Assembly (NCBI GenBank): GCA_963826785.1
Contig: CAWGYD010000004.1
Span: forward strand, 288,001 to 352,000
Direction: 5' to 3'
Length of the DNA stretch: 64,000 bases
From: an uncultured delta proteobacterium
Lineage (GTDB): Bacteria > Desulfobacterota > Desulfobacteria > Desulfobacterales > Desulfosalsimonadaceae
Shown one piece after another: positions 57,108 through 64,000 of this stretch. Below the pieces are notes generated by a model. It saw only the letters and a list, made by a program, of their open reading frames with translations. It made no database searches and was not told the origin of the DNA. Made by a program: the position numbers and the translations under genes. How positions within the stretch are numbered: the first letter of the stretch is position 1; each line of letters begins with the position of its first letter.

Positions 57108-58001
57108 CTATTTTACTTGGGACCCCGTTCGGGAAAGGGGCCTGGTCGATCCCAGCAGGATATTGAGCGCCGCCTGCCGGATTTTATTGAGCGGCGCGGG
57201 TTTCTGCAGGTGGGCAATCTGGTGGGTGTTGAAAAACGATATCCGGGCAAGGGAAGCATCCCCGGTAAAAAACAGGTAGCGTGAAGCAATCGCCGGGAAA
57301 AGCCGGCGCGCTTCGCTGAAGCACTCCAGTCCATCCATGACCGGCATGTCGATATCGGAAAGAATCAGCCGGTACCAGGTCGATTTGATTTTTTCCAGCC
57401 CTTCGCGACCGTTTTCGGCCATCTCGATGATCCCCTCATCGATCAGAATCGCCTTTAGCAGCTCTGCAATGGCCTCATCGTCCTCGATGATCAGGATTTT
57501 CTCCTGCCAGACCGGGTCAAGCTGCATGATCTGGTCGATTTTCGTCCGTTTTTCACCCGACTGCTCAATGAAATACTCGACGGCCCGTTTGTGGGTCTGC
57601 AGACCGGCGGCCACCCACTTGAATTCGGAAACGCTCTTTTTGAGCGTATTCACCACGAAGAGGAAGATGTCGTTCCATTCGGAAAATTCCGTGTTGATGA
57701 TAAAATCCAGCAGGCGGTCCCGGGTGAGGGTGCTTCCGGAAAGGTGGGCCAGCGCCTTGTCAAAATGGGCTTCGATTTTCAACCGGGTCTCCGGGTCCAG
57801 AAGGATGGCGGAAGCTTCCCCGTGGGCCACCAGGTGGCTGGCGGCGCTGGCCATGGCATGATAGTGCCAGGCTTCATCTTCCGCAAACCGCCTGATCCGG
57901 CCGGCAAAGGCCGGTTCGTCTTTAAACACTTCAGCCGCTCCATTGTAGAATATCCCGGCCTTATGTTCGATTTTGAGCAGCCATTTTACGATATCTTTCA
58001 T
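57108..58001 (-). CDS. Ferritin/rubrerythrin-like domain fused to a C-terminal response-regulator receiver
   Basis: IEHKAGIFY and EDEAWH; then ILIIEDD, SDIDMPVMDG and QKP. Confidence 0.8.
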   Translation of the reverse strand: MKDIVKWLLKIEHKAGIFYNGAAEVFKDEPAFAGRIRRFAEDEAWHYHAMASAASHLVAHGEASAILLDPETRLKIEAHFDKALAHLSGSTLTRDRLLDFIINTEFSEWNDIFLFVVNTLKKSVSEFKWVAAGLQTHKRAVEYFIEQSGEKRTKIDQIMQLDPVWQEKILIIEDDEAIAELLKAILIDEGIIEMAENGREGLEKIKSTWYRLILSDIDMPVMDGLECFSEARRLFPAIASRYLFFTGDASLARISFFNTHQIAHLQKPAPLNKIRQAALNILLGSTRPLSRTGSQVK

Positions 58002-58238
58002 TGCATACGCCCCTGTGCCCTGTGTATAGGTTGCATCAATTGTGACGAATATCTCCTAAAGTAAAACGCGGCATTTAGGTTTCAAGTGCGTCTGCTTTTC
58101 AATCGCACACGATAAAATCTGTTCCGCATCCCCTTTATCGCCCGGCTCGCCCATATCGCCGCCCTGTTCGCCAAGTTCTGGATTTTACTTCCCATAGAGA
58201 ATCTGTATAAAAAAACCGCTTTGGATTGAATTTTTCCG

Positions 58239-58310
58239 TTGACAATTCTTTGCACAATGTTCATTACTGATAACGGGGTTTACTTTGCACACATTGCACA
58301 GTTGGCACAT
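58239..58310 (+). promoter_or_regulatory. Candidate promoter with a direct-repeat operator for the hdr operon
   Basis: TTGACA at 58239; TTTGCACAA at 58249 and tandem TTTGCACAC-ATTGCACAG-TTGGCACAT at 58284-58310. Confidence 0.55.
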
Positions 58311-58337
58311 GCCAAATTGCCCCGGAATGGAGCGCCA

Positions 58338-58865
58338 ATGAATGATGCGCCTGTAAAATCATGTCTCATATTCGGCTGCGGCAACCCGCTCTTCGGTGAT
58401 GACGGGTTCGGCCCGGGCGTGATCGAAACCCTGGAATCCAGCTGCGATCTTCCGCCTCATGTCACCTGCGCGGATGCCGGAACCGCCATCCGCGATCTCC
58501 TGTTCGATATTCTGTTGACCCCCGACAAACCCGACCGCATTATCGTCGTCGATGCCGCGGACCGCCCCGGCCGGCTGCCCGGCGAAATCTTTGAAATCGA
58601 TGTGGATGAAATCGACGTAAAAAAAACATCCGATTTTTCTCTGCATCAGTTTCCCACCACCAACATGCTCAAGGAATTAAAAGATCACACCCAGGTGGAC
58701 ATCCGTGTGTTAGTCGTCCAGATCGAACACATTCCCGAAGAAATTTGCCCCGGCATGTCGGATGCGGTCAAAAGCGCCATTCCCGGCATGTGTGACCGGA
58801 TTCTGGAAGCAGCCGGTGCGGCGGGAACTTCGAAGCGCCAACCCAATGGAGATGTCATTATATGA
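58338..58865 (+). CDS. Hydrogenase maturation protease (HycI/FrhD-like)
   Basis: [20 protein letters not shown] and SLHQFPT motifs. Confidence 0.9.
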
Positions 58866-61800
58866 TTGAAATCAAGGTGGGAAAACTTGCCGAGATCTTC
58901 GGCGTCCATCGAAATACGGTCAGCAACTGGATCAAGACCGGCGCGCTCCCGGCAGAACCCAGGATGGGAAAGAAATATGCCATCAGACGGGAAAAATTCA
59001 TCCGCTTTTTAGATGAAAAGGGAATTTCCCGGGATATGGCAACCGCCCTGATGGGCGATATCGATGTACGGACCATTCCGGAAGCACCGGAAAAAATTCA
59101 AACCTCCATTATACCAAAAGAGGTGCCCATGTTCGATAAACCAGTCGGATCGGTAATGGTTGTCGGCGGCGGAATCGCGGGTATACAGGCGTCCCTGGAT
59201 CTGGCGGATTCGGGGTATTTTGTCTACCTGCTGGAAAAAAGCCCCGGCATCGGCGGCGGCATGGCCAAACTGGACAAGACATTTCCCACCAATGATTGTG
59301 CCATGTGAATCATCTCGCCAAAATTGGTCGAGTGCGGTCGGCACTTAAACATTGAAATACTGACATTATCCGAAATTTTAGACGTTACCGGGCAGTCCGG
59401 TGCATTTTCCGTCACGGTAAGAAAGAATCCCCGCTACGTCGACATGGACAAATGCATCGCCTGCGGCATCTGCTCCCAGAAATGCCCCAAGAAAGTCGAC
59501 GATGAATTCAACATGGGGATTTCCAAGCGCAAGGCCGCCTACATCCAGTATGGCCAGACCGTTCCCCTGAAATACGTGATCGATCCGGACAACTGCCTCT
59601 ATGTGACCAAGGGGAAATGCCGGGCCTGCGAGAAATTCTGCCCCACCGGCGCCATCAACTTCGACGACCGGGAAAAGATTGAAACCATCAATGTGGGATC
59701 ATTGATCCTCTCCCCCGGTTACACCCCCTTCGACCCGTCCGGTTTGGACTACTACGGGTACGGCAAGATTGCCGACGTGGTCACCAGCCTGGAATACGAG
59801 CGGATGCTGTCCGCCGGCGGGCCCTTCCAGGGGCACCTTGAAAAGCCCTCCGACGGCAGAACGCCGGAAAATATTGCCTGGATCCAGTGCGTGGGATCGA
59901 GAAACACCAACCGGTGCGACAACGGATACTGCTCCAGCGTCTGCTGCATGTATGCCATGAAGCAGGCCCTGATCACCGCCGCCCACCTGCCGGAAGGCGG
60001 AAAACAGAGCATCTTTTTCATGGACATCCGCAGCCACGGCAAGGAGTTCGAACTCTATTACGATTATGCGAAACAAAGCGACGTCCGCTTCATTCGCGCC
60101 CGGCCGCACACCATCGAACCCGGACCGAACAATTCGGGTGTGGTCATGACGTATTTCACCGAAGACGGCCAACAGCTGCGGGAACATTTCGACATGGCCG
60201 TGCTGTCCATCGGCATGGAGGCTTCCAAGGATGCCGGGTCCCTGGCGAAGAAGACCGGAATCGCCCTGACACCCTACAATTTTGCGAAAATGGGCAGCTT
60301 CAACCCCTGTGCCAGCACCCGGGACGGGATTTTCATCGGCGGTGCTTTTGCCGGGCCCATGAATATCCCCACTGCCGTGGCCCAGGCCTCTTCTGCGGCG
60401 GCCGAAGCCTCAAAAGCGCTGGTTCTGGCCAAGAACAGTTTGACGCGGGAGAAGAAATATCCGCCTGAAAAACTGATCGCCGGACAGGAACCCCGCATCG
60501 GGGTGTTTGTCTGCTCCTGCGGAGTTAACATCGCAAGCGTCATCGACGTGGCCTCGGTTGTGGAATTTGCCAAATCGCTGCCCAATGTGGTCTTTGCCCA
60601 GAACAACATGTTCTCCTGTTCGACGGATACCCAGAACATGATGGCCAAAACCATCGAGGAACAGAAACTCAACCGGATCGTGATCGCCGCCTGTTCCCCC
60701 CGGACCCATGAACCCCTTTTCCAGGACACGTTGCGGGAGGTTGGCTTGAACGGCTACCTGGTGGAAATGGCCAACATCCGGAATCAGAATGCCTGGGTGC
60801 ATCACAATGATCCCGAAAAGGCCACGCAGAAGGCCAGAGATCAGGTGCGGATGGCGGTATCCAAGGTGCGCATGGCCTACCCCCTGGAAAGACTCTCGGT
60901 GGACGTCGTACAGAAGGCGCTGGTCATCGGCGGCGGGATGGCGGGCATCAATGCAGCCCTCGGGTTTGCCGGCCAGGGATATGAAACCGTTCTGCTGGAA
61001 AAATCGGATACGCTGGGCGGCAATGCATTAAACATCCATAAGACCGTCAAGGGGGAAGAGGTGCTTCCGGCGCTGCAGGATTTGATTCAACAGGTGGAAA
61101 ACCACGAGAAGATCAAGGTCCTGAAAAATGCCCGGTTGAAGTCCGCGAGCGGCATCGTGGGCAGCTTTTCCAGCGAGGTGGAAAGCAACGGCGACACCCA
61201 CCACATCGATTATGGTGTGGCGATCCTGGCCACGGGCGGCAAAGAATCGGTGCCCACGGAATACCTCTACGGAGAAGACGACCGGGTGATGACCCATCTG
61301 CAGTTCGACAGCGAACTGGCCCACCACGCCGATCGGATCAAAAAGGCCGAAAGTGCCGTTTTTATCCAGTGCGTGGGCTCCCGGGATGAACAGCGCAACT
61401 ACTGCAGCCGGATCTGCTGCACCCACACGGCCAAATCGGCCATCATGCTAAAAGAGCTCAATCCGGACATGAACGTCTATGTCCTGTACCGGGATATGCG
61501 CACCTACGGCACCAAAGAGGATTTCTATACAAAGGCCCGGGAACTGGGGGTGATGTTTATCCGCTATGATCTGGACAACAAGCCGGAGGTCTTCCGGGAG
61601 GGAGATGATCTGCTCCTGCGGGTGACGGACCCCATCGTCCGGCAGCCGGTGCTCATCGATACCGACTACCTGGTGCTGGCGGCGGCGGTGGTGCCCAACG
61701 ATGTCTCCGACCTGGTCGGCCTCTTCAGGTGCGCCACCAACCAGGACGGCTTCCTCAACGAAGCCCATCCCAAGCTGCGGCCCGTGGACATGGCGGTGGA

Positions 61801-62176
61801 CGGACTTTTCGTCGCCGGCCTGGCCACCTATCCCAAAATGATCGAAGGTTCGATCTCCCAGGCCAAGGCCGCGGTTTCCCGGGCCAGTGTGATCCTGTCC
61901 AAAAGCCGGATGTCTCTGGATGCGGTCAAAAGTTTTGTCACCGAGGCATGCGACGGGTGCGCCATATGCCTGGATGTCTGTCCCTATGATGCCATTTCGC
62001 TCAAGGAAGAGTCGGTGAACGGGCATGTGGTAAAGAAGGTCAGCACCGAAGTGGCCCTGTGTAAAGGGTGCGGCATGTGCGAGGCCTCCTGTGCCAAGCA
62101 GGGCATCCAGGTGCACAGCTTTACCGACCAGCAGTTAAGGGCCCAGGTGTATGCCGCTCTGGATCTACCCAATTAA
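58862..62176 (+). CDS. hdrA: Selenocysteine-containing heterodisulfide reductase subunit A-like protein with N-terminal excisionase-type HTH (1104 aa)
   Basis: ORF 58862-59308 and ORF 59324-62176 are in frame across TGA 59306-59308 ([16 protein letters not shown]); GGGIAG FAD site, ferredoxin motifs, two QCVGSR/YCS..CC modules; SECIS-like hairpin 59330-59346. Confidence 0.9.
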
Positions 62177-62201
62177 ACAAGCGCAATAGGAGAAACAAGC
62201 C

Positions 62202-62633
62202 ATGTCCGACAGCTTTGAACCGAAAATCATCGGTTTTCTCTGCAACTGGTGCGCCTATGCCGGCGGCGATCTGGCCGGGATCATGCGCCTCCAGTATCCA
62301 TCCAATCTCCGTGCCATCCGGGTGATGTGCTCCGGCATGGTCCACCCGAACATCGTGGTCGAAGCCCTGTCCAAGGGGGCCGACGGCGTCATGGTCATGG
62401 GGTGACATCTGGGGGAATGCCATTACCTGGAAGGTAATGAAAAAGCCCTGGCCCGCTCCGAGGTCATTAAAATCGTGCTGGAGGATTCGGGCATCGACCC
62501 GCAGCGGTTTGCCATCGAGTGGGTCTCCTCGGCCGAAGCCCCCCGCTTTGCCGAGGTGGTCACCCGGTTTACGGAGAAGATAAAGGCGCTGGGCCCCGCC
62601 ATGGCGCAGCCGGCGCAAGCCGCGGCCAACTGA
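62202..62633 (+). CDS. mvhD: Selenocysteine-containing MvhD/FlpD hydrogenase iron-sulfur subunit (143 aa)
   Basis: FLCNWCAY, RVMCSG and GADGVMVMG-U-HLGECHY (TGA 62403-62405); frame continues through WVSSAE to TGA 62631; hairpin 62421-62439. Confidence 0.92.
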
Positions 62634-62652
62634 TCACATTAAACGATAAGGA

Positions 62653-64000
62653 ATGGGGTCAATGAAACTCGATGAAATCAGACTGGGGAAAACCCGTCAA
62701 AGCATATTCAAGGACAAGGTCAGGTCGCTTCTTCCCGACGGCGGAAATCTCAACCTATGCCTGACCTGCGGCGCCTGTTCGTCGGGGTGCCCGGCATCGG
62801 GGCTTTCCGGGATGGATCCGCGCAAATTTTTGCGCATGGCCGCCATGGGGATGGACGAGCAGATTCTGAGCACGGACTGGGCCTGGCACTGCACCATGTG
62901 CCAGCGCTGCATCTATGTGTGTCCCATGAAGATCGATATCCCCCAGCTGGTCTTTCACGTGCGCAATCACTGGCCGCGGGAGAAACGGCCCAAGGGGATC
63001 ATCGCCTCCTGCGATGCGGCCCTGCGGCACGACACCTGCAGCGCAATGGGGGCCTCCGAGGAGGACTGGCAGTTCGTGGTGGAAGACGTGGCCGACGAGG
63101 TCCGGGACAACCAGAAGGGGTTCGAGGATCTGCAGGCGCCCATGGACAAGAAGGGGGCCGAGTTCTTCCTGAACCAGAATTCGAGGGAGCCGGTCACCGA
63201 GCCCGATGAAATGGTCCCCCTGTGGAAGATCCTGAACATGGCCGGGGCGGACTGGACCTACGGCACCAAGGGGTGGGCCGCTGAAAATTACTGCATGTTC
63301 ATGGCCGACACGGAGAACTGGGAAAAAATTGTCCGCACCAAGGCGAAAGCCGTGGACGACCTGGAGTGTAAGGTCTGGCTCAACACGGAGTGAGGGCACG
63401 AATTCTTCGCAGTCCGGGCCGGACTGAAAAAATTCGACATCCCCCACAAGTTTGAAATCAAGAGCATCATCGAATATTACGCCCGGTGGATCCGGGAGGG
63501 CCGGCTCAAGGTCAGCGCCGACTGGAACAAGGACCTGAAGGTGAAATTCACCGTCCAGGACCCCTGCCAGCTGGTGCGCAAAAGCCTGGGCGACCCCATC
63601 GCCGAAGACCTGCGGTTCGTGGTGAAATCGGTGGTGGGCGAGGAAAATTTCATCGACATGACCCCCAACCGCTCAAACAATTACTGCTGCGGCGGCGGCG
63701 GCGGATTCCTCCAGGCCGGATACCCCGAGGCCCGGCGGCAGTTCGGACGGTACAAGTTCGACCAGATCAAGTCCACCGGCGCCGACTACTGCATCACCCC
63801 GTGCCACAACTGCCACGCCCAGATCCATGATTTGAGCGAACATTTCGCGGGCGGCTATTTCACCGTCCATCTCTGGACCCTGATCTGCCTGTCCATGGGT
63901 GTCCTGGGGGAAAACGAACGGGCCTATCTGGGGCCGGATCTGGCCGGAATCGGCTTATCGGCGATAGGAGGAAGGTTATGGAAACTTTTTTCGACCTGGT
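62653..64000 (+). CDS. Selenocysteine-containing HdrD/GlpC-like Fe-S oxidoreductase (2x[4Fe-4S] plus CCG domains); no in-frame stop before window end
   Basis: CLTCGACSSGCP, CTMCQRCIYVCP and NTE-U-GH (TGA 63391-63393); frame continues through QDPCQ, YCCGGGGG and PCHNC; hairpin 63410-63426. Confidence 0.88.

Follow-up and report, generated by a model that had tools for sequence, protein, structure and literature searches.

Why a redox enzyme subunit should begin with a DNA-binding domain is the question raised by a gene at 58862–62176 of the window, i.e. the whole 64,000-nucleotide stretch analysed here (positions 288,001 to 352,000 of contig CAWGYD010000004.1, assembly GCA_963826785.1, from an uncultured delta proteobacterium). 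With TGA read as selenocysteine (Sec), the gene translates into 1104 residues, in which a winged helix-turn-helix (HTH) head precedes HdrA, and the sole internal stop is the TGA at codon 149 (59306–59308; context C-A-M-U-I). Our comparisons suggest that the HTH very probably binds a set of direct repeats in the promoter region and controls the operon in which it is encoded. We further favour, with a probability of roughly 0.55, the reading that it is a tethered BldC-like autorepressor, whose tether makes repression report the level of the Hdr subunit.

The HTH head is a conserved part of the first Hdr subunit

That the N-terminal ~60 aa are a MerR-like/excisionase (HTH_17) HTH, as the first-pass annotation of this DNA had claimed, is borne out by Pfam: HTH_17 (PF12728) matches aa 6–53 (E value 4.4e-10, 40.1 bits vs a gathering cut-off of 27), flavin adenine dinucleotide (FAD) and iron–sulfur (Fe-S) domains lie C-terminal to it, and the HdrA domains begin past M90. 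The same annotation had placed the HTH in frame with HdrA, its start overlapping the stop of a protease gene, and a second ribosome-binding site (RBS) and ATG at the HdrA boundary, all of which holds: the translation is open apart from the Sec UGA149, the stop of hycI and the HTH start overlap in the ATGA at 58862–58865, and the second RBS, GAGGTG (59120–59125), is followed by the ATG at 59129 (M90). A check of the reads over 58862–59131, also proposed there, gave a partial answer, i.e. a linker-spanning contig of 151 bases from sequencing run X2 is identical to the window over 58992–59142, with no difference or gap, and none of the sequencing-run contigs spans the whole fusion stretch. Since this contig may come from the same site as the window, it is not independent evidence.

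We can confirm that the fusion is real, neither an assembly error nor a lost stop, the latter because, among 121 distinct HTH loci that were fetched, 118 read open and in frame into the leading Hdr gene (76 HdrA, 42 HdrCB) of a hycI-hdr-mvh hydrogenase operon. The three exceptions are one HycI–HTH fusion with stops ahead of hdrA and two frameshifts; among the HdrA-adjacent loci, two of 78 lack an open linker. A protein search with a 148-aa query gave 2244 hits; the best 120 listed (90 % clusters) include 119 proteins besides this one, each of which combines HTH_17 with the FAD start and covers 98–100 % of the query. A survey of HTH models and domain architectures, as the first-pass annotation had proposed, thus finds a conserved HTH_17–Hdr fusion, and homologues do not as a rule encode the HTH separately. 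Assembly errors do occur, e.g. the relative L036 carries a one-base slip in a run of A, but an assembly artefact or a private loss of the stop codon is refuted by the conservation in these 119 homologous clusters, named isolates included, as well as by the identical contig across the linker, and its probability is negligible.

Culturable carriers of the fusion are Desulfosarcina variabilis, D. widdelii, Desulfatibacillum alkenivorans, Desulfogranum marinum, D. mediterraneum and Desulfocicer vacuolatum. A GTDB scan gave 428 relatives, and those named to order or family among the best 80, which were fetched, belong mostly to the Desulfobacterales, Desulfobulbales, Syntrophobacterales and Desulfohalobiaceae. 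Of 401 genomes sampled evenly across the phylum, 35 had an HTH match, one each, three or four weak matches being other HTH proteins. The genome of the window holds a single HTH copy, and none was seen on six other hdrA-like N-termini that were inspected. Distant HTH_17 relatives are fused to a receiver-like domain (L007, L204) or to a Cys-rich segment and a PAS-like region (L008, L009), these domains being named by eye.

The HTH heads the first hdr gene in 81/81 mapped loci, usually directly after hycI, and lies 68–101 codons from HdrA, always in frame. In a tree built from the HTH (113 rows by 60 columns, with many unresolved forks), well-supported branches force at least three partner changes between HdrA and HdrCB, and the head tracks the position in the operon rather than one enzyme. 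Among 77 linkers, preselected as open, the two alternative frames contain a stop in 49 and 52, and shuffled linkers in 48/77 on average, i.e. about 60–65 % of unconstrained linkers would be expected to have one, vs stops or frameshifts in 3/121 loci. These figures and the restoration of the frame after each partner change argue against an ordinary small repressor whose tether arose by stop-codon loss and is neutral, or a stabilising or translation-coupling carrier. That reading could draw on the HycI-fused form, on triple fusions of HycI, HTH and HdrA in a single frame (L126, L130), on a few short forms and on BldC, a 68-residue protein that acts alone (PMC5859096), and we regard it as distinctly unlikely.

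A candidate operator accompanies the HTH

The first-pass annotation had proposed that the fusion regulates its own operon and overlooked the likely operator (58285–58309), whose co-occurrence with the HTH supports this proposal well. The tandem pattern has two matches in the window, both at this site, and in a position weight matrix (PWM) scan of the own 4.4-Mb genome the top two hits are this site (21.5 and 20.5 bits; next 17.2). When up to one mismatch is allowed, the tandem occurs in 61 of 81 upstream regions, vs a mean of 0.68 and a maximum of 5 in 100 shuffles, and the repeat spacing peaks solely at 9 (61) and 18 (23); the background in the own genome is 17/3678 upstream windows. As the motif was chosen from the data of these 81 regions, it was tested on loci outside them, i.e. 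the 30 phylum-sample loci minus the own locus, six duplicates and one unparsed locus, and the tandem was found in 21 of these 22. The unparsed locus (L205) carries R17S, has lost the wing lysine and has neither GCACA nor GCATA in the promoter region; L203 shows TGCCCA variant repeats with the same period.

Loci picked by HycI instead of by the HTH show the same association. At a PWM score of ≥15 bits, the site was present in 31/34 loci with the HTH in cis, some of which overlap the training set, in 2/9 where the HTH sits elsewhere in the genome and in 0/21 from genomes in which no HTH was found (maximum 3.1); these genomes are 85–100 % complete, and 18 of the 21 are hycI–hdrA loci. Fisher's test (31/34 vs 2/30, p 2e-12) overstates the difference, as kin are not independent. 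Within genera, PWM scores with vs without the HTH were 24.2 vs -3.1, -6.5 and -4.7 (g46), and 24.0 and 24.2 vs -9.4 (g64). The strict pattern gave four hits in two of five HTH-less near-closed genomes, all within long open reading frames (ORFs), and four hits in three of five g54 genomes with the HTH, two at promoters and two within ORFs.

Repeats that come and go with the HTH, also within genera, speak against the winged helix being a structural connector while another factor binds the repeats, as do its varying partner and the invariant residues on its recognition helix and wing. The precedent for a connector is class II benzoyl-CoA reductase (BamDEF), in which the winged HTH (wHTH) of BamF sits on an MvhD-like subunit and contacts BamI (10.64898/2026.04.10.717634), i.e. 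makes a protein contact, unlike the role predicted for the HTH head; for the latter, we consider such a function highly improbable.

Most repeats lie 21–73 bp past TTGACA, where they cover the -10, the transcription start and the first part of the transcript, a placement that suggests repression. TTGACA promoters were found in 35 loci, and 16 upstream regions have neither TTGACA nor a sigma-54 motif. The promoter at 58239 was not listed by a sigma-70 consensus scan, which demands a better -10, and in close relatives (e.g. L010) the -10 found there is better. That the repeats themselves are sigma-54 sites was rejected, as separate TGGCAC-N5-TTG motifs lie upstream of the repeats in up to ten loci. 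A sigma-54 activator gene is located just upstream of hycI in L011, L014, L020, L029, L030, L032, L038–L040 and others; as several loci also have a promoter of sigma-54 type 5' of the repeats, the operon may have an activator plus this repressor.

In many, not all, of L010–L089, the offsets of the repeats from TTGACA cluster at 21, 30, 39, 48, 57 and 66, i.e. on a 9-bp lattice fixed to the -35, and in a Desulfurivibrio-like group the repeats are off phase relative to this lattice. A perfect inverted repeat, TTGGCA-CA-TGCCAA (58302–58315), overlaps the third operator unit of the window; on inspection (uncounted), it was not seen as a conserved feature. A divergent gene for 297 aa with a receiver domain (57108–58001, - strand) has the intergenic region in common with the operon, and no Rfam families were found at 57500–64000.

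A BldC-like head and the proposed mechanism

H16, R17, N18, T19, N22, W23 and Y39 of the HTH are invariant in 120/120 aligned proteins, and these residues are located on the recognition helix and wing. The HTH was modelled confidently (predicted local distance difference test, pLDDT, 83–88); linker aa 68–85 have a pLDDT <50. The modelled fold is a MerR-like wHTH without a coiled coil, with BldC as the top match (6amk; Z 5.5, root-mean-square deviation 2.3 Å, 51 residues aligned), Xis and others being less than 1 Z unit behind, i.e. the head has a small wHTH fold in common with BldC (6amk, 6ama) and Xis-type proteins. By a weak alignment (E 0.047), six of eight hydrophobic interface positions of BldC are kept in type, F21, V23, W31, T42, L43 and G44 corresponding to a hydrophobic residue at 13, V/I15, W23, mostly T34, mostly V/I/L35 and G36, while I40, L11 and the R22–E16 salt bridge are not retained, and N18 and N22 stand in place of the base-reading K26 and R30.

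Apo BldC is monomeric and binds head to tail, one 9-bp direct repeat per protomer, with the repeat consensus AATTXXXX(C) (PMC5859096). Like BldC sites, the candidate operator consists of 9-bp direct repeats with an AT-rich part and a variable repeat number, and its repeats fit this consensus in many loci. Unlike BldC, the head is fused to a redox enzyme subunit of 430–1015 aa and, by the genome PWM scan, has one local target instead of a large regulon. By analogy, the head is predicted to work like BldC, yet we do not class it as a member of the BldC family, which comprises small stand-alone proteins, vs fusion in frame in 118/121 loci here; for the excisionase model TIGR01764 it scores slightly below the cut-off (26.4 vs 28.8).

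We propose that the HTH would be a dedicated autorepressor of the Mvh-hydrogenase/Hdr operon, carried as a flexible N-terminal head on the first Hdr subunit. Several heads would align head to tail on two to four TGCACA repeats around and just past the transcription start, obstructing polymerase with sigma-70 or sigma-54. With every head attached to an enzyme subunit, repression would report the pool of that subunit, i.e. the amount of head-bearing subunit that is present and free to reach the DNA, and this feedback would keep the level of the bifurcating complex steady. In the window, the internal RBS would yield head-less HdrA and so set the head-bearing fraction; as an optional extra in Sec lineages, chains that end at UGA149 would provide a peptide of 148 aa with a head. 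While binding, repression and the tether as a reporter of the subunit pool are what we infer from these sequences, the retention of the tether itself is seen in the 118/121 in-frame loci, across at least three partner changes and in obligate fusions without an internal start. A variable linker, predicted to be disordered, and an HTH on HdrA, HdrCB or HycI are more in keeping with a tether than with an allosteric interface; gating of DNA binding by redox or assembly state is conceivable.

Several observations weigh against a tethered BldC-like autorepressor. The likeness to BldC is numerically weak (Foldseek E 0.07–0.09, Z 5.5), and the BldC-family model NF033787 gave 15.5 bits vs a cut-off of 77. 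Because some of the loci served to define the motif, the positive counts in the 81-region and HycI sets are partly circular, and related loci are not independent. The strict tandem is absent in 20/81 regions, several of which have near matches or an operator elsewhere, and four Desulfobacula-type loci have a perfect tandem before another gene and not at the HTH–hdrA promoter, which means that autoregulation does not hold everywhere. Nor is the tether absolutely required, as the HTH of one genome sits on the HycI protease and there are 38 short HTH forms of 28–112 aa, mostly singletons and some marked partial, a few of which are perhaps truly free.

Tandem repeats are found at the promoter of a 214-aa protein in L041, L043, L047 and L066, and at that of hysB in L050. 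The 214-aa protein (L047:6328-6969, - strand; also L041, L043 and L066) is probably secreted, has an HExxH motif, matches no Pfam or NCBIfam family and was not found in the own genome.

PutA, BirA and NadR are examples of trigger enzymes that bear a DNA-binding domain. Like these, and like RbkR, the fusion has an enzyme and a DNA-binding domain in one chain and would control the genes of its own pathway. In those enzymes the domain arrangement is fixed and the ligand switch is known, whereas here the head moves among subunits of one bifurcating complex and is often optional through the second start, and ligand control would be by analogy only. In a true trigger enzyme, repeat binding would depend on the redox, cofactor or assembly state of the Mvh–Hdr complex; for example, a subunit that is apo, oxidised or orphan would repress, unlike the loaded complex. 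In favour of such gating, the HTH is nearly always on an Fe-S subunit of one complex, and in obligate fusions a head on every enzyme molecule should lead to over-repression unless binding is conditional or weak. In addition, C146-x-x-U149 probably lies at the position of the conformation-linked C59–C62 disulfide of BamE (10.64898/2026.04.10.717634), as judged by a constant two-residue offset and not by alignment. Set against this are a linker that is unconstrained in length and sequence and predicted to be disordered, at least three changes of partner, and one genome that retains the operator with the HTH on a cofactor-free protease; such gating appears unlikely. A wider form, in which the Mvh–Hdr complex or an unassembled subunit would be the transcription factor of its own operon, with heads polymerising on the repeats in a given redox or assembly state and with the second start and Sec read-through tuning the number of heads, free or tethered, is conceivable but doubtful.

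Second start and selenium

While the linker varies in sequence across the aligned proteins, M90 is kept in 112/120. The internal ATG with its RBS is kept in 30/42 Sec-type HdrA fusions, 4/11 Sec-type HdrCB fusions, 0/10 cysteine-type HdrCB fusions and 1/8 cysteine-type HdrA fusions, in the last case far from the domain boundary. Where Glu is encoded three codons ahead of the internal ATG, its codon is GAG in 30/30 loci vs 258/500 in the HdrA body, and the strength of the internal RBS is -7.1 kcal/mol vs -7.2 in 15 HTH-less hdrA genes. Judging by this codon choice, the internal RBS and ATG are under selection, which makes it likely that two isoforms, with and without the HTH, are made here, as the first-pass annotation had suggested. 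In other lineages, which lack the internal start, the fused protein would be the only product possible. A hairpin masking the internal RBS (z -1.99) was considered and found not to be special, the median accessibility being 0.52 in 35 fused loci vs 0.48 in 15 HTH-less hdrA genes.

The Sec site of hdrA is TGA in 67 and Cys in 10 distinct sites. A consensus hairpin resembling a selenocysteine insertion sequence (SECIS) is paired in 61–67/67 per pair, where protein constraints also shape the sequence, and the hairpin of the window alone is not significant (z -0.55). As in bacterial selenoproteins, UGA, hairpin and tRNA-Sec are all present (selA, selB and selD lay outside the search), and in-frame TGA codons occur in HdrA, MvhD, HdrCB and MvhA of the operon.

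From the Sec codon, the first-pass annotation had derived a potential selenium-responsive switch, with a 148-aa HTH-containing peptide made in the absence of read-through. In such a switch, this peptide ending at UGA149 would be the active repressor, and selenium shortage would shut an operon of at least four selenoproteins. The 42/52 HdrA fusions of Sec type, with the internal start kept in 30 of these, and the Sec codons of the four subunits are compatible with this. On E. coli fdhF, 30–40 % of ribosomes recode UGA, and recoding needs selenium (PMC4513850); by analogy, UGA termination in Sec lineages should yield a free 148-aa head. However, eight HdrA and ten HdrCB fusions are of cysteine type, and the latter, obligate fusions without UGA or internal start, keep the operator in 10/10, i.e. 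selenium cannot be a general signal. Moreover, the total number of heads made would be independent of selenium, so the two forms would have to differ in activity, and we consider the switch very unlikely. A full-length region search for cysteine-type fusions gave 20 candidates, none of which scored; since such fusions exist (P0157, L035, L041 and others), this blank reflects the sensitivity limit of the search.

The HdrA enzyme, its operon and known relatives

The features of the locus are listed in Table 1.

Table 1. Features of the hycI–HTH–hdrA operon and its promoter region (positions in the window)
Feature	Position	Strand	Details
Putative sigma-70 promoter	58239..58267	+	-35 TTGACA 58239-58244, 17-bp spacer, weak -10 CATTAC 58262-58267
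Single operator-like unit TTGCACAAT in promoter spacer	58250..58258	+	35 bp 5' of first tandem unit, ~four periods
Candidate operator, three TGCACA-type direct repeats, 9-bp period	58285..58309	+	~+10 to +35 of inferred transcription start
hycI/FrhD-like hydrogenase maturation protease, first operon gene	58338..58865	+	Pfam HycI E 8e-22; TIGR00072 above cut-off
HTH_17 winged HTH, BldC/Xis-like	58862..59038	+	aa 1-59; Pfam; conservation; model pLDDT; structural match to BldC 6amk
Helix and variable linker, predicted disordered, K-E-V-P at end, encoding internal RBS GAGGTG (59120-59125)	59039..59128	+	
Tandem pseudo-dimeric BamE-type HdrA from internal ATG (M90)	59129..62176	+	Two FAD/thioredoxin reductase (TrxR)-like units, ferredoxin inserts
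C146-x-x-U149 pair, TGA 59306-59308, SECIS-like hairpin at +19 to +36	59297..59341	+	
mvhD, Sec UGA 62403-62405	62202..62633	+	Pfam FlpD; translation with TGA=U
HdrCB/HdrD-like (TmcB/HmcF-like, 'GlpC') Fe-S protein, Sec UGA 63391-63393	62653..64000, to window edge	+	Pfam Fer4_8, CCG

The start of hycI given there is most likely the correct one (ATG 58338), which is a correction. Past the window edge, the operon continues with a frhB-like gene, mvhG, mvhA (Sec), hypC, hypD and hypE.

HdrA matches 5ODC in three stretches (E 6.8e-182), in a tandem permuted form, with E313 and K367 aligned to E356 and K409. Features of HdrA, a predicted electron-bifurcating subunit, that are present here are the TrxR-like FAD domain, the 4Fe-4S inserts, a CxxC/U pair and the conserved Glu (E313) and Lys (K367) of the putative bifurcating site. 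The scores for whole-protein NCBIfam HdrA equivalog models lie below the cut-offs (932 vs 1100, 714 vs 1400 and 671 vs 1300); the tandem permuted architecture differs from these models. The subunit set is shared with MvhAGD–HdrABC (5ODC), whose bifurcating-site Glu and Lys are kept here. By sequence, HdrA also resembles BamE, a fused HdrA dimer with Lys280 as the lysine of the bifurcating site (10.64898/2026.04.10.717634). In the best stretch of each of six solved relatives, residues 1–81 of the fusion are unmatched.

The operon type is already known, i.e. the glpC-hdrA-frhD-frhG-frhA selenoprotein operon of Deltaproteobacteria (PMC1794560) shares the tandem hdrA-hdrA gene and Sec in HdrA, MvhD, HdrCB and MvhA; the terms 'DNA-binding' and 'helix-turn-helix' are absent from the main text of that paper. 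It also appears in PMC2702500, where the term 'DNA-binding domain' occurs once. A literature search, mainly of open main texts without supplements, gave no description of the HTH–Hdr fusion or the operator, which are apparently not described in print. With a named candidate regulator, a precise candidate operator and culturable carriers, direct testing is possible, and, if true, enzyme-borne transcription control would extend to a core energy-conserving complex. We know of no description of how H2-driven electron-bifurcating Mvh–Hdr complexes are regulated in sulfate reducers and syntrophs. Annotation would also need correction, as gene callers break the Sec forms in two, i.e. a headless HdrA and a 148-aa product labelled 'excisionase family DNA binding protein'.

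Among neighbouring and related genes, the frhB-like gene just past the window (L090:5925-7095) turns non-homologous-looking after ~290 aa, which suggests a frameshift or assembly error, and a Sec-type hdrA paralogue (G000:C1:62287-66696, - strand) is broken by ~1.4 kb past residue 170. Finally, a small conserved ORF of no Pfam or NCBIfam family follows mvhA or mvhD in HdrCB-first operons (L048:16028-16324, + strand, and 22 other loci).

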